Virus record (IMG/VR): IMGVR_UViG_3300014208_000012
Location: 1 to 48,404 of that record
From: a virus
Lineage: Duplodnaviria > Caudoviricetes
DNA: 48,404 nucleotides
Reading direction: 5' to 3' (one strand)
Within the stretch, counting starts at the first letter, position 1, and each line of letters opens with the position of its first letter. The notes under the pieces were generated by a model, which worked only from the letters and a program-made list of their open reading frames with translations, had not been told where the DNA came from and made no database searches. Shown one piece after another: positions 4,057-29,103 of the stretch. The position numbers were made by a program, and so were the translations under genes.

Positions 4057-4405
4057 GGAATTTCCTCCCGGCCTTGACGATCATCAGGCCGACGAACGTC
4101 ACGATCAGCACCCCCGGTATTCCCCACTGTCCGTACAGCACCCACCCGGCGAAGGCAAGTAGTAGCGCCGCCGGTATCCACTGGCGCAGCATCCCCCTCG
4201 TTGACCGCCACGGATGCATCAGCCAATGATGCCAGGGGCAGAGAACGACCAGGTCGCCCGCGCGCTCGTGGCCCAGCCTTTCGTACGTCGCATGGTGAGC
4301 GTGCAACTTGCCCCGACGGTGACAACGTGAGCAGCGGTAGCCAGCGCGGGCGTAGGCTTCCTTTCGAGTGGCGTCCCAGTTGGAAGGAAGGTAGCGGCGG
4401 GTCAC
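4049..4405 (-). CDS. HNH endonuclease with C-terminal transmembrane hairpin
   Basis: CSRC...LHAHHATYERLGHE...DLVVLCPWHH HNH motif followed by two hydrophobic segments; GTGA coupling at 4402-4405. Confidence 0.8.
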   Translation of the reverse strand: MTRRYLPSNWDATRKEAYARAGYRCSRCHRRGKLHAHHATYERLGHERAGDLVVLCPWHHWLMHPWRSTRGMLRQWIPAALLLAFAGWVLYGQWGIPGVLIVTFVGLMIVKAGRKFRG

Positions 4406-5979: not shown

Positions 5980-6723
5980 TTATTCACAATGAACACTCTC
6001 AAACTTGCAGACTTCCAGCGGAAACATCTCATCTTGTTGCACCCCGGCGGGCAGGGATGACAACCCAATCGATGTCCGCAGGGCGCGTAACTCGGCACAA
6101 CGCGCCGGGTACATCTTCTCATCGCGAATCAGGTCGCACAGTTTGTGATTGACGCACCACACGCAGCCAACGCGGGCGCGGCCTCTGCCATAGGCAGGAT
6201 GCGCCATAATCCCATAGTCGGCAAGGCCTTGAAACATCGCCTGTTTATCGAAGTCTAGCGCGGGCCGGTAGGCGGAGCGCCCCGAGCGCACAATGGGTGA
6301 AAAGTCGGGCAGTTCTGAACGCTTGCGGCTTTCATCCCGGCGCTGGCCTAGAATAATCAGCGCGTCGGGGGGCGTGCCGGTTGCCTCCAGATACCACTTG
6401 AAATTGTCGATCTTGACGGCGCGGCTCACCATGCACTTTCCGTGCATCGGCCACATTCCCCGGCGGCGTACCATTTCATCGAAGCTATAGCCGTCCCGCT
6501 TTTCTACCTCCGCCTTGACGCCGGTTGCCCGCTCGATATAGTGCAGATATTCGGGCGTGTCGGGCGGCTCGTTGCCCGTATCGGCCATAATCGCGCGGAT
6601 AGGCTTGCCGGTTTCCAGCGCCCACAGCAGACACCACGTTGAATCCACTCCGGCGCTGTAACTGACAATGACCTGGCTGAAATAGGACAGTACCTCGCGG
6701 TCGCGGTCGGTTATGGCAATCAC
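5980..6723 (-). CDS. PAPS reductase-family (PP-loop, DndC-like) protein
   Basis: VSYSAGVDS PP-loop, ADTGNE, GQRRDESRKR, HPAY..G..RVGCVWC. Confidence 0.85.
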   Translation of the reverse strand: MIAITDRDREVLSYFSQVIVSYSAGVDSTWCLLWALETGKPIRAIMADTGNEPPDTPEYLHYIERATGVKAEVEKRDGYSFDEMVRRRGMWPMHGKCMVSRAVKIDNFKWYLEATGTPPDALIILGQRRDESRKRSELPDFSPIVRSGRSAYRPALDFDKQAMFQGLADYGIMAHPAYGRGRARVGCVWCVNHKLCDLIRDEKMYPARCAELRALRTSIGLSSLPAGVQQDEMFPLEVCKFESVHCE

Positions 6724-6815
6724 CGCGCCACCTCCAGCAACAACGATGCGGCCAGGATGCCGGCGGGTAGACAGGCCAGGAGGAGGAGGGAGAGAAGGAA
6801 GAAGCGGCGGGTCAT
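6720..6815 (-). CDS. Tiny membrane peptide (31 aa, MTRRFFLLSLLLL...)
   Basis: ATGA/GTGA coupled; GGAGG RBS; hydrophobic. Confidence 0.5.
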   Translation of the reverse strand: MTRRFFLLSLLLLACLPAGILAASLLLEVAR

Positions 6816-7120
6816 CGTAGCGCCTCCTTGATTTGTGCCACTACCGCCGGCACCATCTCCGGCGTGGCGCGGAATACCCGCCAGCCCAGCAGCGCGGCAG
6901 AGTTGTACTTTTCACAGTCCTTGGCATACCCGGCGGCGCGGTTGTGACGACCGCCTCCTTGGAGCCACGTCCCGCCCTCCACTTCGAGCGCGACCTTGCC
7001 GTGAGCAGGCCAGGCGAAATCAAAAAGCCAGCGGCGTACCGGATGAAAGCGATACTCGGCTTCCGGTTGCGGTAGGCCCATTTGAGCGCAGAGCATCGGC
7101 ACGAGGTAGTTATTGGGCAT
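6812..7120 (-). CDS. PD-(D/E)XK endonuclease (DUF559/Vsr-like, possible resolvase)
   Basis: EYRFHPVRRWLFDFAWP...VALEVEGG...DCEKYNSAALLGWRVFR signature. Confidence 0.8.
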   Translation of the reverse strand: MPNNYLVPMLCAQMGLPQPEAEYRFHPVRRWLFDFAWPAHGKVALEVEGGTWLQGGGRHNRAAGYAKDCEKYNSAALLGWRVFRATPEMVPAVVAQIKEALR

Positions 7121-7328
7121 CGCCCACCTTCCTCTCGTACTTCTCCAGCAGCTCAATCACGCCGATAACGTCGTTCTTGCAGCATCCCCAGTTTCCGCCC
7201 GCCAGTGACCAGCACAAACTAGTGAGCCCAGCGGCCTCGATGCGCGGATCGTCGCGTAGGATGTAGGCGGCGAGGCTGGGGTCAGTGTCCAGCAGGAAGC
7301 GGGCCTCGACAACCACGTCTCTAGGCAT
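7110..7328 (-). CDS. Hypothetical protein
   Basis: RBS and overlap coupling. Confidence 0.55.
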   Translation of the reverse strand: MPRDVVVEARFLLDTDPSLAAYILRDDPRIEAAGLTSLCWSLAGGNWGCCKNDVIGVIELLEKYERKVGDAQ

Positions 7329-7533
7329 CGCTTCCCCCTGTCACAAAACGAGATGTTTCTAAGTTGAACATCTTGCGGTCCCTGAACTCTTCTTTCTTGC
7401 CAATGTTGAAATCCTGAACGGCGGCGTAATAACCGACCACCCTGGCCATTACGAGGCAAGGAACCTTGACCTCGCCCTGTTCCAATCCCTCGGAAGATGT
7501 AGCAATCTCACTATTCAATGTAACATTGTCCAT
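7321..7533 (-). CDS. Stand-alone C-terminal glycyl-radical domain of class III (anaerobic) ribonucleotide reductase
   Basis: CLVMARVVGYYAAVQDFNIGKKEEFRDRK matches the NrdD C-terminal RxxGY...FNxGKxxEFxDR motif; only 70 aa. Confidence 0.8.
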   Translation of the reverse strand: MDNVTLNSEIATSSEGLEQGEVKVPCLVMARVVGYYAAVQDFNIGKKEEFRDRKMFNLETSRFVTGGSDA

Positions 7534-7582
7534 TTATGCCACCTCACATCTAAGTTCTAAGTCTAAGAAAGTTGCCGCAAAC

Positions 7583-8287
7583 TCACGCTTTTGCCGTTTC
7601 CGCCCGGTTGCTTGACATATAACCGTCGTCCCATTGCGCGTTGAACTCCTCTACCGCCTCTTCCTCTGGCAGCGCCAGCCGCCCCTTGCTTTTCGGCTTT
7701 CTGTCAACCACGAGGCCCATCAAAACGAGGATCCCCCGGCGGCTATCTAAGGCATAGTCGAAAAGCTCGCGGCTGAAATGCCCCGACGCCACCAGCGCCT
7801 CTTCCGTCAGGCCATAGCGATAACAACCGCGTAGCAGTTGCTCCAGGTCCGTTTTCGTCGTGTCGGGGCGCGGCGCATTTTGGCGGTTGCCGTGAATCAC
7901 CAGTGGCTCGGGGCGGCCTGTGCCGATCACGCCGTCGCCGTCCAAGTCCCGGTTGAGCTGGCGCTCCAAGATAGCAATCTGTACATCCTTCTCTTCCTCG
8001 CTCATACAGGCGACGTTGGCCAGGGCGACGCGGACATTGCGGCGGTCTATGGCCGCGTCAACGGCCTCCCAGCCCAGATACCCGGTTGCCCCCAGGAATC
8101 CGGCGCAAGCGCAGACTAGAAGCCAACGCAGAGCGCCGGATGTCCACGGGTCAAAGATGATTGGCACGAGTAGACCGGTGATACAGAGGCAGGCGACGGT
8201 GACAAACCAGCGCCCGACGATTCCCGATGCGCCCGGGATTCCCGGCAATTCCCGCAGAGCCTTATTGACTAGCCGTTTTTCTTCCAT
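7583..8287 (-). CDS. Two-TM membrane protein with DxDxDG loop and C-terminal soluble domain
   Basis: Two hydrophobic helices, RDLDGDGVIG motif. Confidence 0.7.
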   Translation of the reverse strand: MEEKRLVNKALRELPGIPGASGIVGRWFVTVACLCITGLLVPIIFDPWTSGALRWLLVCACAGFLGATGYLGWEAVDAAIDRRNVRVALANVACMSEEEKDVQIAILERQLNRDLDGDGVIGTGRPEPLVIHGNRQNAPRPDTTKTDLEQLLRGCYRYGLTEEALVASGHFSRELFDYALDSRRGILVLMGLVVDRKPKSKGRLALPEEEAVEEFNAQWDDGYMSSNRAETAKA

Positions 8288-8288
8288 G

Positions 8289-8396
8289 TTATCCCCTCGT
8301 GGCCAGGATGAAGGCCACGGCAGAGACCAGGGCCAGGGTGCCGACCAGTATGAACAGGAACCAGAACAAGAGTGAGACTAACCGTTTATCGCTCAT
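8289..8396 (-). CDS. Tiny membrane protein (35 aa, MSDKRLVSLLFWFLF...)
   Basis: ATGA coupling, GAGGGGG RBS, hydrophobic. Confidence 0.55.
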   Translation of the reverse strand: MSDKRLVSLLFWFLFILVGTLALVSAVAFILATRG

Positions 8397-8539
8397 TGTG
8401 GCCCCCTCGTGTCCCAGCCGATGACATAGCCCGACAGCAGGGAAAGCGGCACCAGGGAAAGAAAGGGCGAGGCGTAGACGGCCGCGATAACGGATAGCGG
8501 CAGCGCGATAAGCGCCAGTAGAAAGATACGGAAACGCAT
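8393..8539 (-). CDS. Tiny membrane protein (48 aa, MRFRIFLLALIALP...)
   Basis: Fills the gap; hydrophobic; coupled. Confidence 0.55.
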   Translation of the reverse strand: MRFRIFLLALIALPLSVIAAVYASPFLSLVPLSLLSGYVIGWDTRGPQ

Positions 8540-8547
8540 TTGTCGTG

Positions 8548-8781
8548 TCATCTCTCCAACCTCATCCCGTTCGCCCTCGCAAACCTCGCCAGCGCTTCCA
8601 ACTCATCCTTCTCCGCCACCTCGGCAATGGTACGGAGCATCAGTTGCAAATCCTCGTGCGACCACACGGCGCGTTCGCGGATGACATCGGCGGTGGCCAG
8701 TAGCAGCTTGCTGCCCGGTAGGTGGCGGCAGAAGAGGTCATAGGAAGCGAAGAGTTCGGAGGCCATCCAGGTTGTTTGCAT
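8548..8781 (-). CDS. Hypothetical protein
   Basis: RBS; abuts upstream stop. Confidence 0.6.
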   Translation of the reverse strand: MQTTWMASELFASYDLFCRHLPGSKLLLATADVIRERAVWSHEDLQLMLRTIAEVAEKDELEALARFARANGMRLER

Positions 8782-9225
8782 CTACATTCCCCCTGCTTCC
8801 CATAGCAGCTTTTGACCAGTCGGATGCGTATCAACTCGTGGCCGGGAAGCGCGTGACCATCCCCCGCCCTTCGTCTCGTAGAGCACTTCCCACCCAGCGG
8901 CTATCAGGCTCGTTCCCTTTTCACTTTTCAGCGTGTAAGTAATTACTCGCTTGTATCCCATCGCCCGCGCTGCCCGGAAAGCGGCGGCATAGAGCTTACT
9001 GGCAGCGTGCGGGGTGCCGTCAGTGCAACAGCGCGTTATCTCCGCCGTCCAGCCATTGTCAAGGTTACGACTCACCGGCCTGCCGACGGTGACAACGCCG
9101 ACAATGCCAAATTCATCGGCCACACCAATGCAGAACTTACAGCCCCGCACAATGCCGTGGTGGCGGTGATGCTTTTTGATAAAGGCGTTAGCTTCCCTGA
9201 AGGTGATGGGAACAAGTTCTAGCAT
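8782..9225 (-). CDS. XF1762-family (GNAT/Mom-like) protein
   Basis: PITFREANAFIKKHHRHH, GRPVSR, EITRCCTDG, MGYKRVITYTL, SLIAAGW motifs. Confidence 0.8.
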   Translation of the reverse strand: MLELVPITFREANAFIKKHHRHHGIVRGCKFCIGVADEFGIVGVVTVGRPVSRNLDNGWTAEITRCCTDGTPHAASKLYAAAFRAARAMGYKRVITYTLKSEKGTSLIAAGWEVLYETKGGGWSRASRPRVDTHPTGQKLLWEAGGM

Positions 9226-9326
9226 CAGCGTTTACGCCCCTGATCCAGTTCGTCTAATATCGCCACCACTAGAACCATAAAAGCCCCGAGGATTAACTGT
9301 AGCCAACAGGTTGTTTGTGCGTCCAT
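9225..9326 (-). CDS. Tiny membrane protein (33 aa)
   Basis: TGATG coupling on both sides; hydrophobic core. Confidence 0.5.
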   Translation of the reverse strand: MDAQTTCWLQLILGAFMVLVVAILDELDQGRKR

Positions 9327-9952
9327 CAGTCCCCCCTCTTGCAGCTTTTACTATGCCCCGCCCACGCTTGCCGGTTGCGCGCTACAAAGCCGCACTTGCA
9401 GCGGCGCGGGTAGATGCTGCCGGCTACAACCGGCTTTTTCTCGGCTGCAACCGGATGCGCCTTTTGTGCAACGGGCGGTTGCTGTGGCTGCGCAGCGCGG
9501 GCAGTGGCCAGCGTTACTAGCGCCAGGACGGTTGCAAGATGCACCAGGCTGGCCCAGGCCCATTGCAGGCCGCCGCTCAGGATGCTGGCCAGTTGCACGC
9601 CCTGCACCTTGGTCATCAGCACGGGTACAACGATGCACGCGCCTACAAGCGTTTGCACACCGGCGGCTGCAAGCGGTACATACCACAGCACGAGCTTGCG
9701 ACGCTTGGCTGCAAAGGATACCTTGAAGCCGATGTAGGCGGCCAACTCGTAGCAGAAGCCGAACACCAGGCCGGTGATGGGCGTCGCCGGCACGTTCCAG
9801 CCGAATAGTTGCAGGTCGGGCTCGGCAAACTGAAACGCCAGGGAAAAACGCACGACGGGCACAATCAGCAACGCCAGGACGATAAGCTCGAACCAGTCCA
9901 CCGGGCCGAGTAGTTGGCGAGCATCGTCTAGAAAGCGGCGTAGGTGAGTCAT
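9326..9952 (-). CDS. Multi-pass membrane protein with C-terminal C2HC zinc finger
   Basis: About four TM segments then RCKCGF...AGHSKSC. Confidence 0.7.
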   Translation of the reverse strand: MTHLRRFLDDARQLLGPVDWFELIVLALLIVPVVRFSLAFQFAEPDLQLFGWNVPATPITGLVFGFCYELAAYIGFKVSFAAKRRKLVLWYVPLAAAGVQTLVGACIVVPVLMTKVQGVQLASILSGGLQWAWASLVHLATVLALVTLATARAAQPQQPPVAQKAHPVAAEKKPVVAGSIYPRRCKCGFVARNRQAWAGHSKSCKRGD

Positions 9953-10146
9953 CTCCCCAACTCCTTTAGCTGGTTAGTTACCGTGTTGCGGTGGACATGC
10001 AAAAACTCCGCAATCTCTCCGACCTTGTAGCCATCGGCGCGCATCTTTAGGATCAGCATCTGCCCCAGGCTGAGACAGCGGATCGCATCGCGGCGGTCGA
10101 TCCAGTCCACGAGGTCGCGCTCGAAGGGATTGCTAAAGGTGTGCAT
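9949..10146 (-). CDS. Small HTH protein (sigma70 region 4/LuxR-like)
   Basis: LSLGQMLIL...GYKVGEIAEFLHVHRNTV. Confidence 0.8.
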   Translation of the reverse strand: MHTFSNPFERDLVDWIDRRDAIRCLSLGQMLILKMRADGYKVGEIAEFLHVHRNTVTNQLKELGR

Positions 10147-10149
10147 TGG

Positions 10150-12441
10150 CTAGGCCTCCAGCGCCAGCGCCTCTTGCGGTAGCAGGTCAAACAGTGTCAT
10201 CTGCTTCCGTTCCGTGACCAGTCGCAGATTCTTGACCGCAATCTCAAAGTAGCTCGGCTTTAGCTCGATGCCAACGAAACGACGCCCCAGGCGGCGGGCC
10301 ACATAACCCTCGCTGCCGATGCCCATAAACGGGCTGAGGATCATCTCCCCAGGATTCGAGTACAACTTGACGCAGCGCTCGATTGTGCCAAGCTGGAGCG
10401 GGCAAATATGCTTTTCGTCGTCAGCGGCGCGGGCGGTAGAATACTGGAGCGTGTCCGTTTCCTGGATGCCAATCCAGATCCCGTGCGCCCATTCGATCCA
10501 GGTCTCGTTGTCCATTTCCCCGTTCTGTACCGGCGTAACCGGCACGGCATTATCGCCCGGCTTCTTGAAGATGAGCACTTGGTCAATCAGGGCCGGGCGG
10601 CTATCGCTGCTGTCCTTGGCCAGTTGGACAAATAGCAGTCCTTTGCTTTTCGTGCGGATGGCCTGCGCCTGGGGATTCTTTTGCACAAAGGCGCGTCCGG
10701 TAAATACCCAGCCCTCTTTCTCATAGGCGCGGATGACCTCGCCGGGAAAGTCCTTGATGCCAATGTAGCCGTCCCGCTGTGACATAGCCGGGATGTCGGA
10801 GGTGTGGACGCAGGTCAAGCGGCCCGGTTTTGTCACGCGCAGTACCTCGCGGATGATAAAGGCGTAGTGATTGAAAAACTGCCCCCAGCCGCAGTTATTG
10901 CCCAGGTCGTGGTCGCTGGCGCTGTAGGTGTACAGGTCGGCAAAGGGTGGGCTGTAGACGCTCAGGTCAACGCTGTTTTCTTCCAGCTCCTTCAGCCGCA
11001 AGCAGGAATCCCCAAGCAGTGCGGTAAACCCGTTGCCCGTAACAGTGTCCTCTTGGTATTCTTCCTCAACGTTGCTCTCGCCCATGATCTCCTCCTTCTC
11101 ATAGTCCTTCATCGCTTCCAGCAGGCCGGCGCGCAAGTGCTGATTCAGGTTGTCTTTCCGCTGGATATTGTGCCAGATCTCTTCTTCCACGTCAGCCAGG
11201 AGTGTGTGCACGTCAACCGGGAATTCCTGCCGATAGCGGTATTCGCGGCGGATGCACTGATAATAGGCCTCCCAGCTATCGGACAGGCCAAAGAAGGCCA
11301 TGTGGTGGGCATTCTGAAAGTTCATACCGAATCCGCCGATACGCGGCTTTGTAATCAGAACGCGGTATTTGCCGTCCTGGAAATCCTCAAAGGCCTGCGC
11401 CTTGAATTCGGGAGAGTCGGCGCCTGCCACCTCAATGGCCTGGGGGAGTAGGCTCGCCAGCATCCGGCTTTCCGCTTCCAGTCCACACCAGATAATCCAT
11501 TGGCCCTCGCCTTTTTCCAGCAGGTCCAGGAGTACGGCTACCTTGTTTTCAGCCGTTCCCCGCCGTACCGTGTGCCGATCCGCTACGCCGTGCATATGCG
11601 TGAAGAATAGTTCGCCCTCGGGGATGTAATCGGTCGGTACAAAGTGCGGCGTAATGGTCAACTCGGGCAGGATAAAGCCGTCGTCGTCGTAGTCCAGGTC
11701 GGACGGCTTGACAATGGTCATGGCCCACGTGGCCAGCCAGCGGTAGAAAGGCTTTTCCGCGTGATGCTTCAGCCGCCATTCCTGCCCGCCCTTGTTGCTG
11801 CCCTTGCGGCGGAAGAAGCGCCCGTCAGCGTCCTGGAGTTGGTGCTCCTTGTTGGCATTGATAAAGAAGCGGGCCAGCATCTCGGCGCGGGTACAGATGC
11901 CCAGGAATTCGGCGTGGTTGCCCAGTTCAATGTGGTCATTCGGCGCGGGTGTGGCCGTGCAGCAGAGGCGGTACGGCGTCTCGGAAAACATCTCCGTCAG
12001 CCGCTTGCGGGTCTTGCCGTCCAGACCTTTGAGGATGCTGCTTTCGTCCAGCACCACCGCGCCAAAGTCGGCGGCGTTGAAATTGTCGAGCATCTCATAA
12101 TTTGTGATAAACAGGTTGCCGTCGTCGGGGAGGTCGATCCCACTGCGAACGTACCGCACCTTTATCCCGAGGTCATTGGCCATCCGCGCCGTCTGCCGCG
12201 CCACGGAAAGCGGGGCCACGATCAGGGTCCGCTTGCCCATCAGCCGCGCCCATTCCAGTTGTATGTACGTTTTCCCCAGGCCGGTATCCGCAAAGATGGC
12301 CGCGCGGCCCTTACCGCAGGCCCAGCGGACCATATCCCGCTGGAATTGAAACAGCGCCGGGTGAATATCGGCGTCCTGTACCTTGATGCCAGCCGCAGGA
12401 ACGATAGCTAACTTTGCCGCTAGAAACTCATCGTAGTTCAT
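10150..12441 (-). CDS. SNF2-like helicase fused to an amino-DNA methyltransferase (beta class)
   Basis: DTGLGKT, LDESS, TATP, GFGMNFQ helicase motifs; then LGDSC, SVYSPPF, HICP, SPFMGIGS MTase motifs in one ORF. Confidence 0.9.
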   Translation of the reverse strand: MNYDEFLAAKLAIVPAAGIKVQDADIHPALFQFQRDMVRWACGKGRAAIFADTGLGKTYIQLEWARLMGKRTLIVAPLSVARQTARMANDLGIKVRYVRSGIDLPDDGNLFITNYEMLDNFNAADFGAVVLDESSILKGLDGKTRKRLTEMFSETPYRLCCTATPAPNDHIELGNHAEFLGICTRAEMLARFFINANKEHQLQDADGRFFRRKGSNKGGQEWRLKHHAEKPFYRWLATWAMTIVKPSDLDYDDDGFILPELTITPHFVPTDYIPEGELFFTHMHGVADRHTVRRGTAENKVAVLLDLLEKGEGQWIIWCGLEAESRMLASLLPQAIEVAGADSPEFKAQAFEDFQDGKYRVLITKPRIGGFGMNFQNAHHMAFFGLSDSWEAYYQCIRREYRYRQEFPVDVHTLLADVEEEIWHNIQRKDNLNQHLRAGLLEAMKDYEKEEIMGESNVEEEYQEDTVTGNGFTALLGDSCLRLKELEENSVDLSVYSPPFADLYTYSASDHDLGNNCGWGQFFNHYAFIIREVLRVTKPGRLTCVHTSDIPAMSQRDGYIGIKDFPGEVIRAYEKEGWVFTGRAFVQKNPQAQAIRTKSKGLLFVQLAKDSSDSRPALIDQVLIFKKPGDNAVPVTPVQNGEMDNETWIEWAHGIWIGIQETDTLQYSTARAADDEKHICPLQLGTIERCVKLYSNPGEMILSPFMGIGSEGYVARRLGRRFVGIELKPSYFEIAVKNLRLVTERKQMTLFDLLPQEALALEA

Positions 12442-15255: not shown

Positions 15256-16201
15256 GGATCGGCTCCTTTCTCTGGGCGGCCAGGGCCTGCGCCCGGGCCT
15301 TCGTGGCCTCGTCGACGTGGGGCTCGGTTCCGTTACCGTTTTTCTTTCCATCCCCGGCCCTACCCTCCAGAGTGGCCCGGATGTAGCTCATGCTACACTT
15401 CTTGCCGCTCACGGCCTGATCGGTAGCTATTTTGACCTCGTCGAGTGGCCACAGGAAGAGGAGGGATAGAAACGCCACGACATCATCGGTGGACAGGCGT
15501 TTCCCGTGGTCCAGGTTACGGGCAAATTTCGGCAAATATTCTACCAGGACAGTCAGGGCCGCGGGGGTAGGTGGGTATTCCGTTACTGCCGCTTCGATGT
15601 GTTCGGATTCGACGTAGCTGGAGAATATCATCCCGGCTGACTCGCAGGCCTGGTAAACGATTTGCAGCGCCGTCGCGGCTACATAGCCTTCACCTTCTAC
15701 TTCGCCTTCACCTTCGCATTCACCTTCAACTTCACATTCAACTTCGTTACTAGGTAGGGGCAAGGTAGGCGCTACGTAGGCGCTAGGTAGGGGCGGGGTA
15801 GCAACTGCGAAGCCACCAGGATGCGACCAGTTAGAGGTCTGGATAGCATTCCCCAGGCCGTGATAGCGGACGCGGTCAGTCCACCCCTCCGGCGCGGGCA
15901 GCTTGGACGGCGCGGCCCATGAGGTGCGGTGTTGGTACTGCCACCACTTGGTGATCTGGATGCAGCCCTCGTAGAGTAGGATCATCTCTTGCTCAGCCAT
16001 CTCTGCCAACAGGTCAGGGATATCGGCCCTGGTGATTTCGTCGACGTTGGGACAGACGCCCCACTTCAGCGCCTGGGCGTCGGCCTGCAAGCGGCCCTGA
16101 TCGTCGGCGGCCGCCAGCAGCATGGGCCAGAGCACTTTGGCTTTGAGAGAAAGGCGCCCGAAAGAGAGTGATTGTCCCAGTGGCTCGATCATCCTACTCA
16201 T
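15236..16201 (-). CDS. Phage replication initiator (replisome organizer, DnaD-like C-terminus)
   Basis: ADDQGRL N-terminal wHTH-like region, low-complexity EGE linker, SYIRATLE motif; directly upstream of dnaB. Confidence 0.8.
   Translation of the reverse strand: MSRMIEPLGQSLSFGRLSLKAKVLWPMLLAAADDQGRLQADAQALKWGVCPNVDEITRADIPDLLAEMAEQEMILLYEGCIQITKWWQYQHRTSWAAPSKLPAPEGWTDRVRYHGLGNAIQTSNWSHPGGFAVATPPLPSAYVAPTLPLPSNEVECEVEGECEGEGEVEGEGYVAATALQIVYQACESAGMIFSSYVESEHIEAAVTEYPPTPAALTVLVEYLPKFARNLDHGKRLSTDDVVAFLSLLFLWPLDEVKIATDQAVSGKKCSMSYIRATLEGRAGDGKKNGNGTEPHVDEATKARAQALAAQRKEPIHAAATG
15750..15801. repeat. Putative replication-origin iterons inside the initiator gene
   Basis: GTAG at 15754, 15765, 15776, 15787 and 15798 (exact 11-bp period); CTAGGTAGGGGC twice, GTAGGCGCTA twice. 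Confidence 0.7.
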
Positions 16202-16228
16202 AGTGTTTTATCCCCGTACACGTGTGCG

Positions 16229-16813
16229 CTATACATCCGGCTCGGCGACCGGCTCGATCCGGATGCGGATCCACTTGCCCTTGTAGGCGTCCAGGACCTG
16301 TTTCAGGTTCACCGTCTCGGAGAGGATATAGCCGCCTTCCCCGTCCTCCTGGAGCAGCCCGGTCGCGTCGAACTTGTAGGCATTCAGGAGGTACTGGCGA
16401 AAATCGCGGATGCTCAGCTCGCGGTCGGCGGCGACTGCTACTTCCTTCCAGGCCGCGCGGGGATCCGGGCAGATCAGCACGGCCTCGCGGAAGAAGCTCC
16501 ACTCCAGCTCCTCGGCCAGCTCGCGGTGCTCGCGCGTGAACCACTCGGCGACCTGGGCGTGCTGGCGGACGTAGGACTCGCTGCGCCGGCACTGGGAGGC
16601 CACGTAGCGAAGCGTGCCGGCCACGGCGCGGCGGCCGTCGCGAGCGGAGAGCCGGCGCTCGGAGGCGATGACCTCGGCCTGGCGCTTCACCTGCAGCGCA
16701 ATGTCCCCTCGCCGCCAGTGGGTGCCGGCCTCGGTTTGATCTTCGCTGATGAGGAGGCTAATGACTTCCTCTAAACTGTCAGGATCAAGAAGAACGTTTT
16801 TATTGTCGCTCAT
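16229..16813 (-). CDS. Hypothetical protein
   Basis: GAGG RBS; globular composition (HWRRGD...LEWSFFREA). Confidence 0.7.
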   Translation of the reverse strand: MSDNKNVLLDPDSLEEVISLLISEDQTEAGTHWRRGDIALQVKRQAEVIASERRLSARDGRRAVAGTLRYVASQCRRSESYVRQHAQVAEWFTREHRELAEELEWSFFREAVLICPDPRAAWKEVAVAADRELSIRDFRQYLLNAYKFDATGLLQEDGEGGYILSETVNLKQVLDAYKGKWIRIRIEPVAEPDV

Positions 16814-16916
16814 TGTTGTCACACCTCTTGCTCATCGCCAGGCAGCTCCAGAGCACGAGGCCGATGGCAATCCCGGCCAGTAGCCCACCGATGCAGGCGA
16901 AGACAGTGGCGGTCAT
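16800..16916 (-). CDS. Tiny membrane protein (38 aa)
   Basis: ATGA coupling; hydrophobic. Confidence 0.55.
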   Translation of the reverse strand: MTATVFACIGGLLAGIAIGLVLWSCLAMSKRCDNNERQ

Positions 16917-17020
16917 CGGCCCACCACCCCGGCGATCACGAACTGATGCTCCAGCACGATGGTCAGGTAGAGCAGCAGGAGGCCCATCAGGAAGAAGAAA
17001 ACAACGATCCCCTTTGACAT
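16913..17020 (-). CDS. Tiny membrane protein (35 aa, MSKGIVVFFFLMG...)
   Basis: AAAGG RBS; hydrophobic. Confidence 0.5.
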   Translation of the reverse strand: MSKGIVVFFFLMGLLLLYLTIVLEHQFVIAGVVGR

Positions 17021-17175
17021 CGCCTTTGTCCTTTCTGTTTAATCCCCGGGCCCTGCCGGCCTCCCGAGCCCGGGGCGTTTTTTCCTTCGCGGCTCTGCTG
17101 CCGCGTCGGTTCCCCCTCGGGGCCAGCGGGGAAGTTACCTTTGTCACGTCTGCCGGTATACGACACCCGGCAAAG

Positions 17176-17248
17176 TGGCGGGGGGCGGTTACGATCCGCC
17201 GATCTCTGGCGTATGAGGCCAGCGTGTTAGCCACTACACTACCCCGCG
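17176..17248 (-). tRNA. tRNA with CAT anticodon (Met/fMet-like, atypical)
   Basis: Hand-folded cloverleaf: CGCGGGG/CCCCGCC acceptor (1:72 mismatch), GTGT/ACAC D-stem with GG in loop, CTGGC-CTCATAC-GCCAG, GGCGG-ATCGTAA-CCGCC; no encoded CCA. Confidence 0.85.
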
Positions 17249-17249
17249 A

Positions 17250-17490
17250 TGTTGCCGGTTACGTTTCCGGCGTAGCAGGTGCGCGCTTCCTGCTACCGTG
17301 CGGTTGCCGTGGGCCTGTAGCCCACGCGGCCCGGCTCCTCCCGCCGCAAGTCCTACCATGTCGTTCTTGGCACGGGCCAGCTTGTGGAACTATTCAGCAG
17401 CGCGGCGGCGGGATTATGACCAGGCCCGTTGACCAGGGTACCCGCCGGTGTGGATTGCTTGCAGCCCTTCACCGGAGCCGCGCTTACTGC
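17250..17490 (-). ncRNA. Putative structured RNA upstream of the tRNA
   Basis: No convincing gene; many GC stems and a possible 7-bp pseudoknot. Confidence 0.45.
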
Positions 17491-17492
17491 CA

Positions 17493-17509
17493 TCAGTTGT
17501 TAAAGGTGC
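17493..17509 (-). promoter_or_regulatory. boxA-like antitermination element
   Basis: GCACCTTTAACAACTGA resembles the rrn/nut boxA consensus and precedes the RNA block. Confidence 0.6.
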
Positions 17510-17524
17510 TGTGTACTACTTGCC

Positions 17525-18094
17525 TTATCTGCTGTAGCAAGTTACCTTCAGGTCGTCGGCCAGCACGTACACGGCGCAATGGTTGTTACCGGCGCTCCAC
17601 CAGGCGCACCGCTCGCTGAGGCACAGGAGACTGTCGTCGTCGTTGTTCGGCCGTACCAGGGGGCAGCGCTTCGGCCTGGGCAACGCGGGCCTCTCTGGCT
17701 CTTCGCTCTTTTCCTTTTCCTGGCAGCTATAGCCCAGGTGGACGACCTCTTGCGGATCGGTCAGGAGCAGCCCGAGAGCGACCAGGTTGGGCACATCCTG
17801 CCAGCACGGCTCACCGCAGAGGTGACAGGGCAGCGCCACCTGTAGGGTCACCCGGCCCTCACCGCCGCGCGGCCGGTGTACGCGAAAACGCAGGCCGTCG
17901 ATCATGATCGCGTCGTCCGGATCGATCTGGTCCAGCCGCGGGTCGTCCGCGGGGATCTCCAGCACGCGCGGGGCCAGCTCGTGGATGTAGCGGCGGTAGA
18001 CCTCGACCTCGCGTAGCAGACGCTCGTTCTCCGCCACGGCGAGGTATGCCTGGTGTTCAATCAATGCCTTCTGCGCTTCTTCTTGGATAGTCAC
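17525..18094 (-). CDS. Cys-rich hypothetical protein
   Basis: GTG start with GAGGAGGAG RBS; CHLC, CPL..CLSERCAWW..CA motifs. Confidence 0.7.
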   Translation of the reverse strand: MTIQEEAQKALIEHQAYLAVAENERLLREVEVYRRYIHELAPRVLEIPADDPRLDQIDPDDAIMIDGLRFRVHRPRGGEGRVTLQVALPCHLCGEPCWQDVPNLVALGLLLTDPQEVVHLGYSCQEKEKSEEPERPALPRPKRCPLVRPNNDDDSLLCLSERCAWWSAGNNHCAVYVLADDLKVTCYSR

Positions 18095-18105
18095 GTTCTC
18101 CTCCT

Positions 18106-18642
18106 CTAGTCCTCGTACTCCGGTGCCTTGACGTTGACGGATACCTTTTCCTCGAACTTGACGAAAGGCAGCGCGCCCGTTTTCTCGACCGCCCGAGCGT
18201 GCTTCGCCAAGAGCTTTTCGTTGAACGTCTCCGGGACCAGGATCCCCGGGATCTCGCCTGCGTGCGAGCGGGCGTAGGTGAGGGCCGCGGCCGGGTCGGT
18301 GATGCGGGCGACGCGGTCCACCCGGAAGCTGATGCCGGGGAGCAGGTGGCGATAGGTCGGGCTGCCGCTGTAGAGCAGGCGGGCCACGTCCTCGATGCGG
18401 GCGTCCAGCGTGCCGGCGATGGCCAGGGCCGCGCAGGACTCGTCGACGCGCTGCCGGAAGGTCTGCCACTCCACGGTGGCCTGCGCTGCCAGCTCGGCGG
18501 CGTGCGCCGCGGAAGCGGCCTGATCGGCGGCGGCGCGGGCCTCGCACCACTCCAGGTAGAGGTCGCCCAAGGCGATCTCAGGGTCGTTCGGGCAGGGCGG
18601 CGTCAGATCTAGCTCGAGCAGTTCCGTCGTTATCTCAGCCAT
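18106..18642 (-). CDS. Gam/Gp157-like coiled-coil protein (putative host nuclease inhibitor)
   Basis: Coiled-coil N-half, PGISFR..ITDPAAAL..IPG..FNEKLL C-half; next to the recombination gene. Confidence 0.55.
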   Translation of the reverse strand: MAEITTELLELDLTPPCPNDPEIALGDLYLEWCEARAAADQAASAAHAAELAAQATVEWQTFRQRVDESCAALAIAGTLDARIEDVARLLYSGSPTYRHLLPGISFRVDRVARITDPAAALTYARSHAGEIPGILVPETFNEKLLAKHARAVEKTGALPFVKFEEKVSVNVKAPEYED

Positions 18643-20206
18643 TGGAGGCCTCCTCTTCCGGCGCTTCTTCCGTCGCGGCCGGCTCTTCCGCGGGGAAGAG
18701 GGGCTGCTGGCCGTTTTCGGTGTTGACGTACGCCAGCGTCTCGCGCACATACTGCGCGGACACCTCGTCCAAGGGGCCCTCGGGGGCCAGGCGGATGTTG
18801 AGCATCAACAACTGCCCGTTTCCCCATTGCTTCAAGCTGGCCACGCCCTGGGGGTGGACGATGTGCAGGAACTGGTGCCGCAGGTTGTCGATCGATTCGT
18901 CGGGCAGGTCCGGCCAGATTTCCCGGAAGAGGATGGCCGCCTTGGTGATCGGCCCCTTTTGCGGTGGCTCGTTTCCCGGCATGTCGGCGACGGCCTTCTC
19001 CAGGTCGGCCAACCAGGTGATCCGGGCCTCGTTGTGCCATTCGCAGCCGAGATCCCGGCAGTGGGCGATAAAGGCGTCCTGCTGTCCCTTGGCGATGATG
19101 TCGAGGAGGGAAACGGGCCCGAGCGTATCGAGGAAAGCTCGTTCGCTCTTGCCGTCGTTCGGCCATCCGGCGGCGCGGGCCTCGGCCAGGCCGGTCTGCC
19201 AGAGCACGCTGCAGGCGGCCTTTTGCTCTTCCGTGACTTCGGGGCGGGCAGGCTTTTCTTCCCGGGGCTCTTCCTGGGCGGCGGCAAAGCCCGGCTTTTC
19301 CTCGACGAATTCAGCCTCGATTATTTCCCGGGCCTGACGCTCCTGGTCGGCTGTGCTGGCGTCGACCCAGTCGGGCTCTTGTCGTGGGCCGTGGGTCTCG
19401 TCGAGCAGCCCGGCGATCTCGTTCTGGGCGGCCTCGATCTGCTGATTAACCCAGGTAACGACCGGCTCGATCTCGACCATGTGCTTGAGCTGGCGGGCCC
19501 GGCCGCCGTCTTCCAGCGGCATCGAGACCATCCGCGGCACCCGGCGCAGCGTGCAGCGCATGTAGTACAGCGGCCAGTCGCTGCCTTCGAGGCGCCTCTT
19601 TTCCTCGATGTCGGCGAGCTGCGCGCAGAGGCCCAAGTCGTCGTTCTTGGAGGTGGTGACCAGGGAGACGAGCCCGGGCAGGTTGGCCTGCAGCAGTTCC
19701 AGCACGATCACGTAGAGACGGCCCACCCACTTGCAGCCCGGATTCTTCTTGGTCCGCTTCTCGGGATGGCCGTAGTACGGGCACGGCTCCGGCTTGGCCG
19801 GCGGGGAGACGTGAAAGACGCCCTCGGCGTCGCGCCAGAGGCTCATCTCGACGCCGTCGCAGCGGTGGGTCAGCCCGCCGGCCGTCCATTCCTCACTGGT
19901 GGTCTGAAAGACCTCGGCGGTGGTGGGGAAGGGCAGGATCACGTTGAGGGCGGTCGGCTTGTCTCCATAGGCGGCCTTGAACGCGGCCATCACCTCGGGC
20001 CGGTCGCTCTCGAAGCGAAAGTACGGCAGCTCGGCGCCGGGGTAGCGGGCGATCGAACCGTCGTCACGCTTCTTTTCGCGCATCGGGCCGCCCTTGTGCA
20101 GCCGCCCGATCGTCGCCTGCATCGGGATCACGCTCTCGGAATCGGTGACGCCGCGAATGCCCCTCATCGTGCGGTTGGTTCGTGGCGTCCAAGTTGCGGT
20201 GGTCAT
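18635..20206 (-). CDS. phiC31 gp3-like (recombination directionality factor-like) protein with long C-terminal extension
   Basis: IGRLHKG, YFRF, HRCDG, CP...CKWVGRL, LVTTS pattern. Confidence 0.7.
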   Translation of the reverse strand: MTTATWTPRTNRTMRGIRGVTDSESVIPMQATIGRLHKGGPMREKKRDDGSIARYPGAELPYFRFESDRPEVMAAFKAAYGDKPTALNVILPFPTTAEVFQTTSEEWTAGGLTHRCDGVEMSLWRDAEGVFHVSPPAKPEPCPYYGHPEKRTKKNPGCKWVGRLYVIVLELLQANLPGLVSLVTTSKNDDLGLCAQLADIEEKRRLEGSDWPLYYMRCTLRRVPRMVSMPLEDGGRARQLKHMVEIEPVVTWVNQQIEAAQNEIAGLLDETHGPRQEPDWVDASTADQERQAREIIEAEFVEEKPGFAAAQEEPREEKPARPEVTEEQKAACSVLWQTGLAEARAAGWPNDGKSERAFLDTLGPVSLLDIIAKGQQDAFIAHCRDLGCEWHNEARITWLADLEKAVADMPGNEPPQKGPITKAAILFREIWPDLPDESIDNLRHQFLHIVHPQGVASLKQWGNGQLLMLNIRLAPEGPLDEVSAQYVRETLAYVNTENGQQPLFPAEEPAATEEAPEEEASNG

Positions 20207-20761: not shown

Positions 20762-20812
20762 GGCGATTCGTCCCTCGTAGTAGAATGGTGCTGACAACAG
20801 CACCTTACCAAC

Positions 20813-21307
20813 TCAGCGATGAGCCAGCAGCCGCCCGGTGCGCGGGCTCCAGCGCTGGCCGCCGTAGCGACCGGGGCCGTTCGGGTTGACCAGCAGCCGG
20901 CTATCCCGCAGCTCCTGCCCGCAGGCGCAGAAGAAAAAAAGCAGCCTCTGGATGTTGTAGTGCGGATCGTCCAGGCCGAAGGTCAGCATCTTCTCGCCGC
21001 AGCTCGGGCAATTCCGGCGGCCGCGGCGCAGCTTCCAGGAGTGGCCGCCGGCGCAGACCGCGCAGCCGTCACGGTATTCCAGCTTCTGCCCACACTCCGG
21101 GCAGAGCACCGAGCTCGGCCGCTTGGCAGGAGCGGGAGGATCCTGCCGCGGCTGGGCCTGCGACTGGTGCGCCTGGCGCAGGGCGTCGAGCACGTCGCCG
21201 TATTCGGTACACGTGTACGGCGTGTTGTTATCGCACGGCCGGCCGAGCTTGCAGCGCAGGTCGATGACGCTCCAGTTGCGGCAGTAGGTGCGGCGGCGGT
21301 CTTCCAT
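20813..21307 (-). CDS. Multi-zinc-ribbon protein
   Basis: CPEC..CAVC, CPSC..CAC motifs; GGAGG RBS; TAATG coupling. Confidence 0.65.
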   Translation of the reverse strand: MEDRRRTYCRNWSVIDLRCKLGRPCDNNTPYTCTEYGDVLDALRQAHQSQAQPRQDPPAPAKRPSSVLCPECGQKLEYRDGCAVCAGGHSWKLRRGRRNCPSCGEKMLTFGLDDPHYNIQRLLFFFCACGQELRDSRLLVNPNGPGRYGGQRWSPRTGRLLAHR

Positions 21308-22631: not shown

Positions 22632-22660
22632 AGTATAACAGATAATTGAATTATTGTCAA
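22632..22660 (-). promoter_or_regulatory. Early lytic promoter with operator palindrome
   Basis: TTGACA-17-TATACT; spacer holds ATAATTGAATTAT (22642-22654); related copy at 22728-22740. Confidence 0.8.
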
Positions 22661-22757
22661 TCCCCTGTACTTCAAATAAAGCACCAGTTTCAACATTATC
22701 GGAAGTAGAAAGGCAAATTGCTCACAGGTGATTGAATTATGCTAAACGCTCTGTCAC

Positions 22758-23707: not shown

Positions 23708-25360
23708 ATGCCCTCACCCATCACCGACAACACCCTCTTCTACGGCGACAACCTGCCCATCCTGCGCGACTACATCCCCGACCAGAGCGTCGATCTCGTT
23801 TACTTGGATCCGCCGTTCAACTCCAACCGCAGCTACAATGTACTCTTCAAGGACGAAAGCGGCCAGGAATCGGAGTCGCAGATCGAGGCCTTTGACGATA
23901 CCTGGCACTGGGACGAGCGCGAGGAGCGGATCTACCGCCAACTGGTCACGGAACTGGGCGGCCAGGTGGGGACCATGATCGGGGCGCTGCGGCAGTTCAT
24001 CGGGACCAACCAGATGATGGCCTACCTGGTCAACATGGCGGTGCGGCTGGTGGAGCTGCACCGGGTGCTCAAGGATGCGGGGAGCCTGTACCTGCACTGC
24101 GATCCGACGGCGAGTCACTACCTAAAGATCGTGTTGGATACGGTGTTTGGGCCGGAAAACTTTCGTGGTGACATCACCTGGTTGCGGCATAACGCCCGCA
24201 GCACCACGGGACGGTGGCCACGAGTCCACGATATTCTCCTGTTCTACTCCAAGGGCGACAATTTCGCCTTCCAGCCAATCTTAGTCAAGGCAGATCAGGG
24301 CAAACTGCCCCACACCCTGATTACGGGCCCGGATGGATTGAAGTATCAGACGTACGAGCTCACGGCACCGGGTCTGACCAAAGAAGGAGAAAGCGGCAAG
24401 CCATGGCGTGGTTTTGATCCGTCAGCCATGGGCCGGCATTGGGCCAATAATTCGGTCATGATGGAGCAATGGGACCAACACGGCCTGATCCACTGGCCCA
24501 AGCAGGGGGGATTTCCGCGGCGACGAGCTGAACATCCTTTTGTGGCCGATGCACGAATGATCACAATCGGCGACGTTTGGACAGACATTGACCGTATCAA
24601 CCAATCGGCCGCCGAGCGCCTCGGCTATCCGACTCAGAAACCCGTCGCCCTCCTGGAGCGCATCATCCAGGCCAGCAGCAACCCCGGCGACGTCGTCCTC
24701 GATCCTTTCTGCGGCTGCGGCACAGCCATCGACGCTGCGCAGCGACTCGGCCGGCGCTGGATCGGCATCGACATCACCCACCTGGCCATCTCCCTGATCC
24801 GCTACCGGTTGGAGGCCGCCTTTCCCGGGATCCAATTCCAGACGGTCGGCGAGCCGCAGTCCCTGGGATCGGCCCGGCAGCTGGCCTCAGAGGACCGCTA
24901 CCAGTTCCAATGGTGGGCCCTGTCGCTGATCCGGGCTCGCCCCCTGGGCGGCCAGGCCGGGGACAAAAAGGGGAAGAAGGGCAGCGACAAGGGCATCGAT
25001 GGGGTGATCCTGTTCGTCGACGAGGCCGGCGGAAAACCGCAGCAGGTCCTGGTCCAGGTCAAGAGCGGGCATGTGTCGTCGGCGACCATTCGCGATCTAA
25101 GTGGGACGATCCAGCGGGAGCAGGCCGCCATCGGCGTGCTGATCACCTTGGAACCGCCGACGTCGGAGATGGTCAAGGAAGCGGCCAGCGCGGGCTTCTA
25201 CGACTCGACGCTCTGGCAAGGGGAATTCCCGCGGGTCCAGATCCTGACCATCGAGCAGCTGCTGGCCGGGGCCAAGGTGCGGATGCCGGCAGCCCATGGG
25301 ACATTCCAGCAGGCGCAGCGGGTGCAAGAGGAAGGGAAGCAGATGGAGATGGAGATGTAG
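23708..25360 (+). CDS. DNA adenine methyltransferase fused to an Mrr-like restriction endonuclease domain
   Basis: YGDNL, YLDPPF, YPTQKP, LDPFCGCGT; C-terminal DKGIDG...VQVKSG nuclease motif. Confidence 0.9.
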   Translation: MPSPITDNTLFYGDNLPILRDYIPDQSVDLVYLDPPFNSNRSYNVLFKDESGQESESQIEAFDDTWHWDEREERIYRQLVTELGGQVGTMIGALRQFIGTNQMMAYLVNMAVRLVELHRVLKDAGSLYLHCDPTASHYLKIVLDTVFGPENFRGDITWLRHNARSTTGRWPRVHDILLFYSKGDNFAFQPILVKADQGKLPHTLITGPDGLKYQTYELTAPGLTKEGESGKPWRGFDPSAMGRHWANNSVMMEQWDQHGLIHWPKQGGFPRRRAEHPFVADARMITIGDVWTDIDRINQSAAERLGYPTQKPVALLERIIQASSNPGDVVLDPFCGCGTAIDAAQRLGRRWIGIDITHLAISLIRYRLEAAFPGIQFQTVGEPQSLGSARQLASEDRYQFQWWALSLIRARPLGGQAGDKKGKKGSDKGIDGVILFVDEAGGKPQQVLVQVKSGHVSSATIRDLSGTIQREQAAIGVLITLEPPTSEMVKEAASAGFYDSTLWQGEFPRVQILTIEQLLAGAKVRMPAAHGTFQQAQRVQEEGKQMEMEM

Positions 25361-27750: not shown

Positions 27751-29103
27751 ATGGCGCCTAATACAGGCAGCCGGAGCTGGCGCACCTTAACACCTGAAGA
27801 GCAGGAGGATCTCCTGCATGGTAGCGGCACCCTGGCCGATCGCTGCCGGCGCCACAACGCTCGCTACAAGAGCGTGTCCAAGGCGGTAGGCAGACGCGGA
27901 AGCGGTGGAAACCCGCCGCTGGCGCCGCAGCCCGAGAGCGCAGCGACCTCGACGTCGTTCGAGCAGCACACCGACGGCACGGCGGCCGCGGAGGCGCGCA
28001 CGTCGTTCTACCTGACCGACGAGGCGCAGCGGGTCAAGACGCTGGACCAGCTGCTGGACGCCTGCCAGGTCGACCGCGAGGCGTGGAGCGTTCGCGACTA
28101 CCGGGTCAACGCCTGGGAGCAAAACAGCGTCCGGGGTGGGCTGATCACCCTCTTCCAGGTCCGGGCGAACCTCATTCCCAACCCGGACGCCGCGGCGGAA
28201 GACGCGCTGGAGCAGCTGCTCGAGCAGATCGCCGCCTACGCGCCGCGCTACGAAGTCCCGCCGGCGCTGCCTGGTAAAGGTTCCTATTTGCTGGTGCCGT
28301 GCTTCTTCGACGTGCACCTGGGCAAACGGATCCTTTCCAAGGACTCCCTGGCCGACGTCGCGGCGGGGTTTCTGGACGCGGCCGTGCAGCTGGTGGCCCG
28401 GGTGAAAGCGGCCGGCTACGAGATCGACCAGATCCTTTTCCCGGTGGGCAACGACCTCCTCGAGGCCGACACCTACCAGGAGACGACGACGCACGGCACG
28501 CCGATGCCGCTGCAGGCGCGGCTGGCCGAGGTGGAAGAGGCAGCGTGCTGGGTACTGGTCAAGATCGTCGAGCTGCTGGCCACGTTGGCGCCGGTGCACG
28601 TGGTCGGGATCTCGGGCAACCACGACTTTCACTCGATCTGGTGGCTGGTGCGGTTTCTGGCGGCCTGGTTCAAAAACCATCCACGGGTGACGGTCGACAG
28701 CGGGGACCTGCCGCGCAAGTACTTCGCCTGGCGGAGCATCTTGCTGGGGTTGGCCCATGGCAAGGAAGAAAAACCGCCGCAGCTGCCGCTGATCATGGCC
28801 ACCGAGGCGCCGCAGCCCTGGGCCCGCAGCACCTGCCGGGAATGGCTGATCGGGCACAAGCACACCCAGGCCCTGCAGGTCCTGGAGGTGCGCGAGAACC
28901 GCGGGGTGCTGGTCCGGCTGGTGCCCAGCCTGGCCGATCACGACGCCTGGGAGTTCTTGCACGCTTATACGAGCAACCAGCGGGCGGCCCAGGGGATCCT
29001 CTATCACGAGTCCGGGGCGGTCGACACGATGACCATTCCGGCCGGGCCTTCAGGCTTAGACGAGTCTCGTTTTGTGACGGAAGCAGTCACGAGAAAAACT
29101 TGA
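27751..29103 (+). CDS. Calcineurin-like metallophosphoesterase with N-terminal extension
   Basis: DVHLG, GND, GNHD, HG and GHKH motifs. Confidence 0.8.
   Translation: MAPNTGSRSWRTLTPEEQEDLLHGSGTLADRCRRHNARYKSVSKAVGRRGSGGNPPLAPQPESAATSTSFEQHTDGTAAAEARTSFYLTDEAQRVKTLDQLLDACQVDREAWSVRDYRVNAWEQNSVRGGLITLFQVRANLIPNPDAAAEDALEQLLEQIAAYAPRYEVPPALPGKGSYLLVPCFFDVHLGKRILSKDSLADVAAGFLDAAVQLVARVKAAGYEIDQILFPVGNDLLEADTYQETTTHGTPMPLQARLAEVEEAACWVLVKIVELLATLAPVHVVGISGNHDFHSIWWLVRFLAAWFKNHPRVTVDSGDLPRKYFAWRSILLGLAHGKEEKPPQLPLIMATEAPQPWARSTCREWLIGHKHTQALQVLEVRENRGVLVRLVPSLADHDAWEFLHAYTSNQRAAQGILYHESGAVDTMTIPAGPSGLDESRFVTEAVTRKT

Follow-up and report, generated by a model that had tools for sequence, protein, structure and literature searches.

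The closest described systems to the element reported here are the boxA signals of rrn operons and the structured RNAs found beside phage tRNAs. In E. coli, boxA loads NusB:S10 and blocks Rho, and in B. subtilis NusB is bound by a different boxA consensus, according to the available part of PMC13753749. Recruitment of NusB/S10 and blocking of Rho are also described in the accessible sections of PMC12360218, which add that boxA is also able to promote Rho termination. The boxA consensus of gamma-proteobacteria may fail outside that group, as stated in the available portion of PMC5725501. As for structured RNAs, GOLLD and ROOL have been described in prophages in the vicinity of tRNAs, in one case downstream of a Met-tRNA (10.1101/2024.12.08.627333, available text). 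In the literature outside subscription journals and supplements, we have found no published account of the RNA described below or of a Chloroflexota boxA. The stretch which we have analyzed, 17250..17510 on the minus strand of a phage genome, is a real non-coding cassette with a credible boxA; its fold is unclassified and weakly supported.

The window, the whole 48,404 nucleotides that were analyzed, corresponds to the complete record of a 48-kb temperate tailed phage, whose genes include those of a serine integrase and a repressor as well as portal, capsid and tail genes. The phage is present in two groundwater runs, which belong to two studies, and one of these runs is possibly its source. 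No RNA run is among the sequencing runs listed for the phage, which has no bearing on expression. Its immunity region is lambda-like. The host is likely to belong to the Chloroflexota: An alignment with the replication initiator found two genome loci, both in Chloroflexota MAGs. We consider this host likely rather than certain because the nearest named relative of the gene upstream of the element sits in a Phycisphaerae MAG.

The order of genes on the minus strand is a recombination-directionality-like gene (18635-20206), two genes of unidentified family, a 275-nt gap (17524-17249), a tRNA-Met(CAT) gene (17175..17248) and a 154-nt gap, followed by small genes, the replication initiator and DnaB. 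The gene immediately upstream of the first gap (17525..18094, minus strand), which has no assigned family, codes for a Cys-rich protein of 189 aa. The boxA/tRNA stretch is found on the same strand as the recombination and replication genes which flank it. The early transcript is likely to begin at a near-consensus promoter (11/12) at 22632..22660 (minus strand), beside the repressor gene and 5.1 kb upstream of the element. Immediately before the element itself, no sigma-70-type promoter was found.

Other features of this genome should also be mentioned. Two imperfect 31-nt repeats extend across divergent promoters (22638-22754) and are likely operators. Five tandem 11-nt repeats within the replication-initiator gene (15739-15815) are likely origin iterons. 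DNA-modification genes are found at 5980-12441 and 23708-25360, including PAPS-reductase-like and Mom-like genes, a helicase-methyltransferase fusion and a methyltransferase-Mrr-like fusion.

The gap is non-coding. Its four overlapping ORFs (46, 41, 144 and 268 aa) score between -0.29 and -0.64 on a codon measure trained on 12 phage genes, while five of the six in-frame neighbouring ORFs score between +0.27 and +0.54 on the same measure, with the HNH ORF at -0.07; one out-of-frame row was left out of this comparison. Since the gap ORFs also have no Pfam match, peptide readings have been rejected. In a related phage described below, the 46-aa frame changes after five residues, as judged by eye.

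The first-pass annotation described an unclassified ncRNA, and the comparison with Rfam agrees with this description: Only the tRNA is found at gathering level, and nothing credible appears in the 17250-17510 stretch at E up to 10. Neither ARAGORN nor Rfam finds a tmRNA; a tag-like frame near 17370-17344 has no following stop. There is no match to the aptamer models of known riboswitch classes, and no minus-strand U-tract terminator which could act as their platform. Group I and II intron elements, T-box, SRP and RNase P motifs, as well as a hammerhead core overlapping boxA, were considered and rejected after the comparison with Rfam and a motif search.

The boxA-like site is found at 17494..17509 on the minus strand (17509-17493 in another delimitation), 15 nt past the stop codon of the upstream gene and ahead of about 490 non-coding nt which include the tRNA. 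It corresponds to the Chloroflexota rrn boxA with one extra U. In order to define the host signal, we have compared the pattern GCACCTT-NN-MAACTG with 101 Dehalococcoidia genomes: There are 56 matches, as opposed to 8 with reversed-pattern controls. These matches come from 35 genomes, with 13 of them in a single genome. Twenty loci were read, and 12 of them are located 28-88 nt before the start of 16S or 23S; because of this position, we consider the pattern to be the rrn boxA of these hosts. In the order to which genome G001 belongs, rRNA genes are preceded by this motif as well. Once a 1-nt insertion is allowed, the phage site equals the host rrn boxA at all 15 of 15 positions. Without a gap, it fits 7 of 10 fixed positions of the gamma-proteobacterial consensus (PMC5725501, available portion).

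The spacing of the phage site is less satisfactory. The pattern with a 3-nt spacing, as in the phage, gives 72 matches in 301 genomes as opposed to about 85 controls by hand count, so it is not enriched, and the exact letters of the phage are not present among these 72 host matches. The extra U, with a spacing which is not enriched in hosts, is the main doubt about the boxA call. The earlier proposal of an rrn-style boxA ahead of an untranslated stretch with a tRNA is supported, with the reservation of the one-base insertion. A boxA-type pattern with two or three free bases, chosen after the sites had been seen, matches the window at 2 places, while 100 shuffles give no match. The motif is found in none of the 5 other virus records searched. 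Another boxA-like match in the phage, at 27782, lies inside a coding frame and has been taken as due to chance.

The NusB family is found in 41 of 41 Chloroflexota genomes and a Rho domain in 35 of 41 (40/40 and 34/40 if the unpublished G043 is dropped), which bears on the phage only if its host belongs to this phylum. G043 and G349 are also included in the tallies of 401 genomes for BLAST, of 301 genomes for patterns, and of covariance models; no claim depends on them.

A few host loci with this motif deserve mention on their own. A 1.7-Mb Dehalococcoidia genome (G062:C1) has 13 boxA matches, far above other genomes, and the one which was read (L039) is located away from rRNA. Contig ends of G494, G495 and G489 (L213-L217) contain a repeated element which starts with an exact boxA, probably a mobile element bearing the signal. 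In another Dehalococcoidia contig (L049 1501-1900, G426:C35), some 390 GC-paired bases, apparently without genes and unmatched in Rfam, come after boxA; this RNA candidate is not similar to the phage element.

The explanation which we prefer, with about an even chance of being right, is that boxA loads a Nus complex, which allows the polymerase to cross some 490 untranslated bases, and that processing of the tRNA frees a modular folded leader. Binding, folding in vivo, processing and the role of the freed leader, which we infer, would take place as follows. Ribosomes would come off the message once they reach the stop codon at 17525, and about 490 nt without translation would follow. By analogy with the rrn operons of E. 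coli and B. subtilis, NusB/S10 would bind boxA as it emerges, just past the upstream stop. The Nus complex would then shield the gap, and the replication genes beyond it, from Rho termination. Folding models of the growing transcript suggest that a first structure (fold A, described below) would form and might persist as a kinetic product, with the 3' hairpins following in order. As in general tRNA processing, RNase P would cut at 17248, releasing a leader of about 260 nt with the last hairpin at its end, while the tRNA would be separated from the message of the replication genes by 3' trimming. The leader would be a modular processing or protection element similar to an rrn spacer, neither a catalyst nor a sensor.

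The tRNA-Met(CAT) mixes identity features. Position 1 is unpaired, as in initiators, but of the three G-C pairs next to the anticodon loop only two are present; no CCA is encoded, and the T-loop is unusual, with A at position 54. Its nearest match (77%) is found in Mycobacterium phage prophi86-1. Phages tend not to encode tRNA-fMet where VapC targets it (PMC10264068, available part), and it is possible that this tRNA evades nuclease. It is followed by a gene-free trailer with hairpins (17021..17174, minus strand), which reaches the next start codon. A terminator-like site on the plus strand of this trailer (17059-17076) would stop antisense transcription into the tRNA. The first 26 nt of the trailer resemble the 5' half of a tRNA, with GG at positions 18-19; they fold as an 8-bp hairpin.

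All 12 motifs named in the first-pass annotation are present on the minus strand at the places described. The proposed P1 helix is formed by AGCGCGGC (17484-17477) and GCCGCGCT (17406-17399). It encloses CCGGTG (17475) with CACCGG (17450), and GGCGGG (17446) with CCCGCC (17412). In our model of this 5' domain (fold A, 17388..17498), P1 may be extended to 17498/17388, and it closes the P2 hairpin (17445..17475), with its CGGTG/CACCG stem, and the P3 arm (17407..17446). P1 can enclose both of them, although not with 6 bp in each case: The two G's at 17446-17445 are common to P2 and P3. An alternative pairing, TCCCGCCGC (17413) with GCGGCGGGA (17347), forms a 9-bp helix (17339..17413, 17413-17405 with 17347-17339) and is exclusive with P1 and P3, as had been suggested.

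Which of these forms is preferred depends on the length of the RNA. Fold A is the lowest-energy form of the nascent RNA between 135 and 190 nt, and from 200 nt the alternative 9-bp helix takes over in the model. For the full-length RNA, folds A, B and C are all within 6.5 kcal/mol, which is the distance between fold A and the best fold. Pair probabilities are then 0.01 for P1, 0.42 for P2 and 0.94 for the alternative helix, which dominates the equilibrium model.

The candidate pseudoknot is unsupported. It would pair ACGGGCC (17429-17423), in the P3 arm, with GGCCCGT (17372..17378, starting at 17378). The first strand, described earlier as a loop, is not free in the model, which buries it in a 4-bp tetraloop hairpin. 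Opening would cost 10.2 kcal/mol, with a gain of 13.3 kcal/mol before any loop penalty. A 7-bp complement to this segment is found in 7.1%, 11.0% and 11.9% of three controls. Because such a complement is at chance level, the pseudoknot is not evidence of anything.

Three predicted hairpins complete the element (17254..17326: 17326-17308, 17296-17272 and 17271-17254), the last one ending 5 nt before the tRNA. Its resemblance to the tRNA T-arm is limited to one shared 8-mer, and no acceptor stem can be read in the sequence. A tRNA or anticodon-arm mimic in these hairpins has been rejected by eye, both for want of an acceptor stem and because only 3 nt are left in the loop of the first hairpin when it closes. 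The whole 261 nt are not unusually stable (folding z -1.25, 20 of 200 shuffles; -0.46 for the plus strand). Sub-regions which were picked after inspection give z -1.86 for the P1 domain (7 of 200 shuffles) and z -2.95 for the three 3' hairpins (2 of 200 shuffles). Nothing in these results shows a function of the RNA body of its own.

A single related phage allows a comparison. In run X2, the four longest pieces listed match the window phage without differences, for contigs compared over 16000-19000, and record 12 is a 6.4-kb contig of a related phage. This relative matches 17746-17597 in the upstream gene with 16 differences in 150 nt, diverges over the next 66 nt, and matches again at 17530-17477. 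This last block (17477..17530) keeps 51 of 54 bases and includes the upstream stop codon, the spacer, boxA and the 5' strand of P1. The match ends at 17477, the final base of AGCGCGGC, which is a helix-strand boundary. The next 30 bases of the relative, as read by eye, contain the CGGTG/CACCG stem of P2 with a shorter loop, and then TACC as in the window. Such a 5-bp stem is shared by chance in 90 of 95,488 control 30-mers (0.1%). The CGGCTCC strand, required by fold B, which was obtained independently of the first-pass annotation, is not kept. Among the pieces listed, there is no match of at least 80% past 17477, and none which would join the remaining 2.4 kb of the relative to the tRNA or to other parts of the element.

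Conservation of the block does not significantly exceed that of the matched part of the gene (3/54 against 16/150 differences, p 0.41). Compared with the diverged 66 nt, Fisher's test gives p 0.017, if this stretch is less than 80% identical. The relative speaks for selection on P1 and P2 of fold A, insofar as a single sequence with no compensatory pairs may do so. A conserved helix-forming 5' domain thus finds weak support in this relative, in which boxA, the 5' strand of P1 and the P2 stem are kept and which gives no covariation.

A different possibility, clearly less probable than the Nus reading but the best of the others, is that the freed leader (about 260 nt), or the P1 domain of 110 nt within it, has a role of its own as a stable small RNA, like the tRNA-linked GOLLD and ROOL but much smaller, with boxA and the tRNA as the frame for its expression and processing. 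The element is rich in helices: It contains 9 perfect helices of at least 7 bp, compared with 2.6 ± 1.6 in shuffles, and none of 300 shuffles reaches 9. The P2 stem kept with an exchanged loop in the relative would also fit, as would the 3' hairpin immediately before the likely RNase P site and the precedent of GOLLD and ROOL in prophages near tRNAs (10.1101/2024.12.08.627333, available text). Against this idea, the similarity to the relative stops at 17477 in the pieces listed, the overall z is unremarkable, no covariation is observed, and no homologue is found in any collection searched.

These searches covered several collections. In viral contigs, single-protein scans found no homologue; alignment scans found one unrelated locus in one case, 4 loci with no tRNA or element match in another, and none in a further scan. 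DNA patterns gave 2 chance loci in one search of these contigs and none in another, while a further pattern gave 79 loci, none of them element-like or with a tRNA downstream, 78 of them inside long open frames. A metagenome scan for the element found only the contig of the window itself. Genome contigs gave nothing in one search and 2 loci without the element in another. BLAST against 401 Chloroflexota genomes found only scattered matches of 18-44 nt, and in two orders, none of 14 genomes and none of 202 gave a match with E of 5e-4 or less. A single-sequence covariance model had hits with E of 0.05 or less in 3 of 151 genomes, which does not exceed chance, with many broken pairs, and none in 41 loci. 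A phage collection contains only matches to the tRNA, and plasmids contain none. A distant relative (L224 3509-3671, G713:C141) has tRNA-Tyr and tRNA-Gly downstream of a recombination-directionality-like gene, with neither boxA nor a long leader.

The next explanation, which we find rather unlikely, is that boxA and its short conserved stretch form a linker at a point of mosaic exchange, followed by a replaceable GC-rich spacer whose helices are mostly incidental. In fact, 17 of 350 same-length tiles of the genome also reach 9 perfect helices of at least 7 bp, which together with the whole-region z agrees with an ordinary spacer. The relative diverges right past 17477 and shares just 150 nt of the upstream gene, as would be expected at an exchange point. 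Nevertheless, the match stops exactly at a helix-strand boundary with the next stem kept, the 3' hairpins are more stable than most shuffles, and a 500-nt gap would be costly in a densely coded operon.

A second boxA-type site, with the spacing found in hosts, is located at 20800..20813 on the plus strand, in a 51-nt intergenic gap. It is found 13 nt after a TAGAAT hexamer (20781-20813 region), a distance within the range of host leaders as judged by eye, and it overlaps a 7-bp hairpin. Its direction is antisense, towards the repressor gene at a distance of 1.9 kb. The lambda pRE transcript is an antisense, repressor-directed transcript of this kind, and by this analogy the 20800 site is a candidate for the start of a transcript similar to that of repressor establishment. 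The same place may also be read as a complement of the first boxA: On the minus-strand transcript, 20814-20797 is its best partner among 48,305 tiles (-22.1 kcal/mol), not matched in any of 60 shuffles over the upstream transcript. However, this complement is upstream of boxA, the reverse of the order in rrn operons, and half of it is hidden in its own 7-bp hairpin (-14.0). We favour the antisense-boxA reading over pairing with boxA. In host rrn operons (L210-L212), the 16S and 23S trailers pair with boxA at -56 and -49 kcal/mol. No specific downstream trailer was found for the phage boxA: Its best downstream partner, at -37.3 kcal/mol, is equalled with 3 of 25 shuffled queries. Another long-range partner, at 4172, is within the null and has been discarded.

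This complement could add control to a co-transcriptional switch, in which fold A would give way to the fold with the 9-bp helix and gate tRNA processing or read-through into the replication genes, with a ligand, a protein or polymerase speed as input. Such a switch, which had been suggested earlier, is unlikely. The lowest-energy fold does change between 190 and 200 nt of transcript, the three folds are close in energy, the 20814 site is the best partner of boxA in the whole genome, and boxA is one arm of the leader-trailer stem in host rrn operons. What is missing is something to gate: There is no minus-strand U-tract terminator in 17021-17524 and no start codon to hide. In addition, no riboswitch family is recognized, alternative helices are common at 65% GC, and the complement, placed upstream and partly hidden, may equally be a second boxA on the opposite strand. 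The two computed folds are what stands of this claim.

A wider combination of these ideas is also conceivable, although we give it little credit: The phage would encode a small RNA of a new class, with a pseudoknot and two alternative folds, made by rrn-style antitermination and released by RNase P, and the upstream boxA complement would decide read-through into the replication genes. If true, its reversed-order leader-trailer stem would take the place of N-type control by means of RNA alone, in a phage whose phylum has barely been studied.

Finally, a self-cleaving ribozyme cutting the tRNA precursor out of the message is very improbable: Theta ribozymes are linked to tRNAs in phages, often to tRNA-Met (PMC10879173, available part), and a candidate pseudoknot exists, but it is at chance level, no Rfam ribozyme appears at E up to 10, a loose HDV-like descriptor has no match on the minus strand of 17021-17540, the hammerhead CUGANGA and pistol cores are absent, and a lone twister-like 8-mer at 17416 and a GAAAC at 17267 have no partners, so every core tested has failed.

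Among known systems, theta (HDV-like) ribozymes also adjoin phage tRNA-Met (PMC10879173, available part). They differ in topology, as no HDV-like arrangement is found on the transcribed strand on either side of the phage tRNA. Besides, theta ribozymes sit 3' of the tRNA and the phage element is 5'. GOLLD and ROOL share with our element the presence of a structured RNA (here a predicted fold) beside a tRNA in a temperate phage. On the other hand, many GOLLD members exceed 800 nt, compared with about 260 nt here, in a 275-nt gap; there is no Rfam match, and the many pseudoknots of these RNAs are not in evidence (10.1101/2024.12.08.627333, available text).

N-type proteins are short and poorly conserved, and no N-type family was found among the 51 of 270 ORFs scanned. 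As in the lambda nut site (available sections of PMC12360218), boxA belongs to the early operon of a temperate phage, here one whose immunity region is lambda-like. It differs from nut in that it is not promoter-proximal, and no short boxB hairpin comes right after boxA in fold A.

If our preferred explanation is correct, the rRNA antitermination signal of a host from a poorly studied phylum has been borrowed twice by its temperate phage: once in the middle of an operon, where transcription would be carried over the tRNA cassette into the replication genes, and again on the opposite strand, perhaps for a repressor-establishment transcript. The action of boxA and Nus is itself textbook; the outcome is a testable Chloroflexota boxA consensus and an uncatalogued leader with a predicted fold. 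The closest likeness is with the rrn boxA/Nus system of E. coli and B. subtilis (PMC13753749 and PMC12360218, available parts): a boxA-type motif before an untranslated stretch with a tRNA, which matches the rrn boxA of the likely host phylum. The phage differs in its extra U, its location in the middle of an operon, 5.1 kb from the promoter, and the lack of rRNA. Host boxA is an arm of a 26-30-bp leader-trailer stem, while that of the phage has no downstream trailer partner. Although it is not an rrn operon, the cassette has the layout of an rrn spacer unit, with a boxA, a folded spacer and a tRNA.
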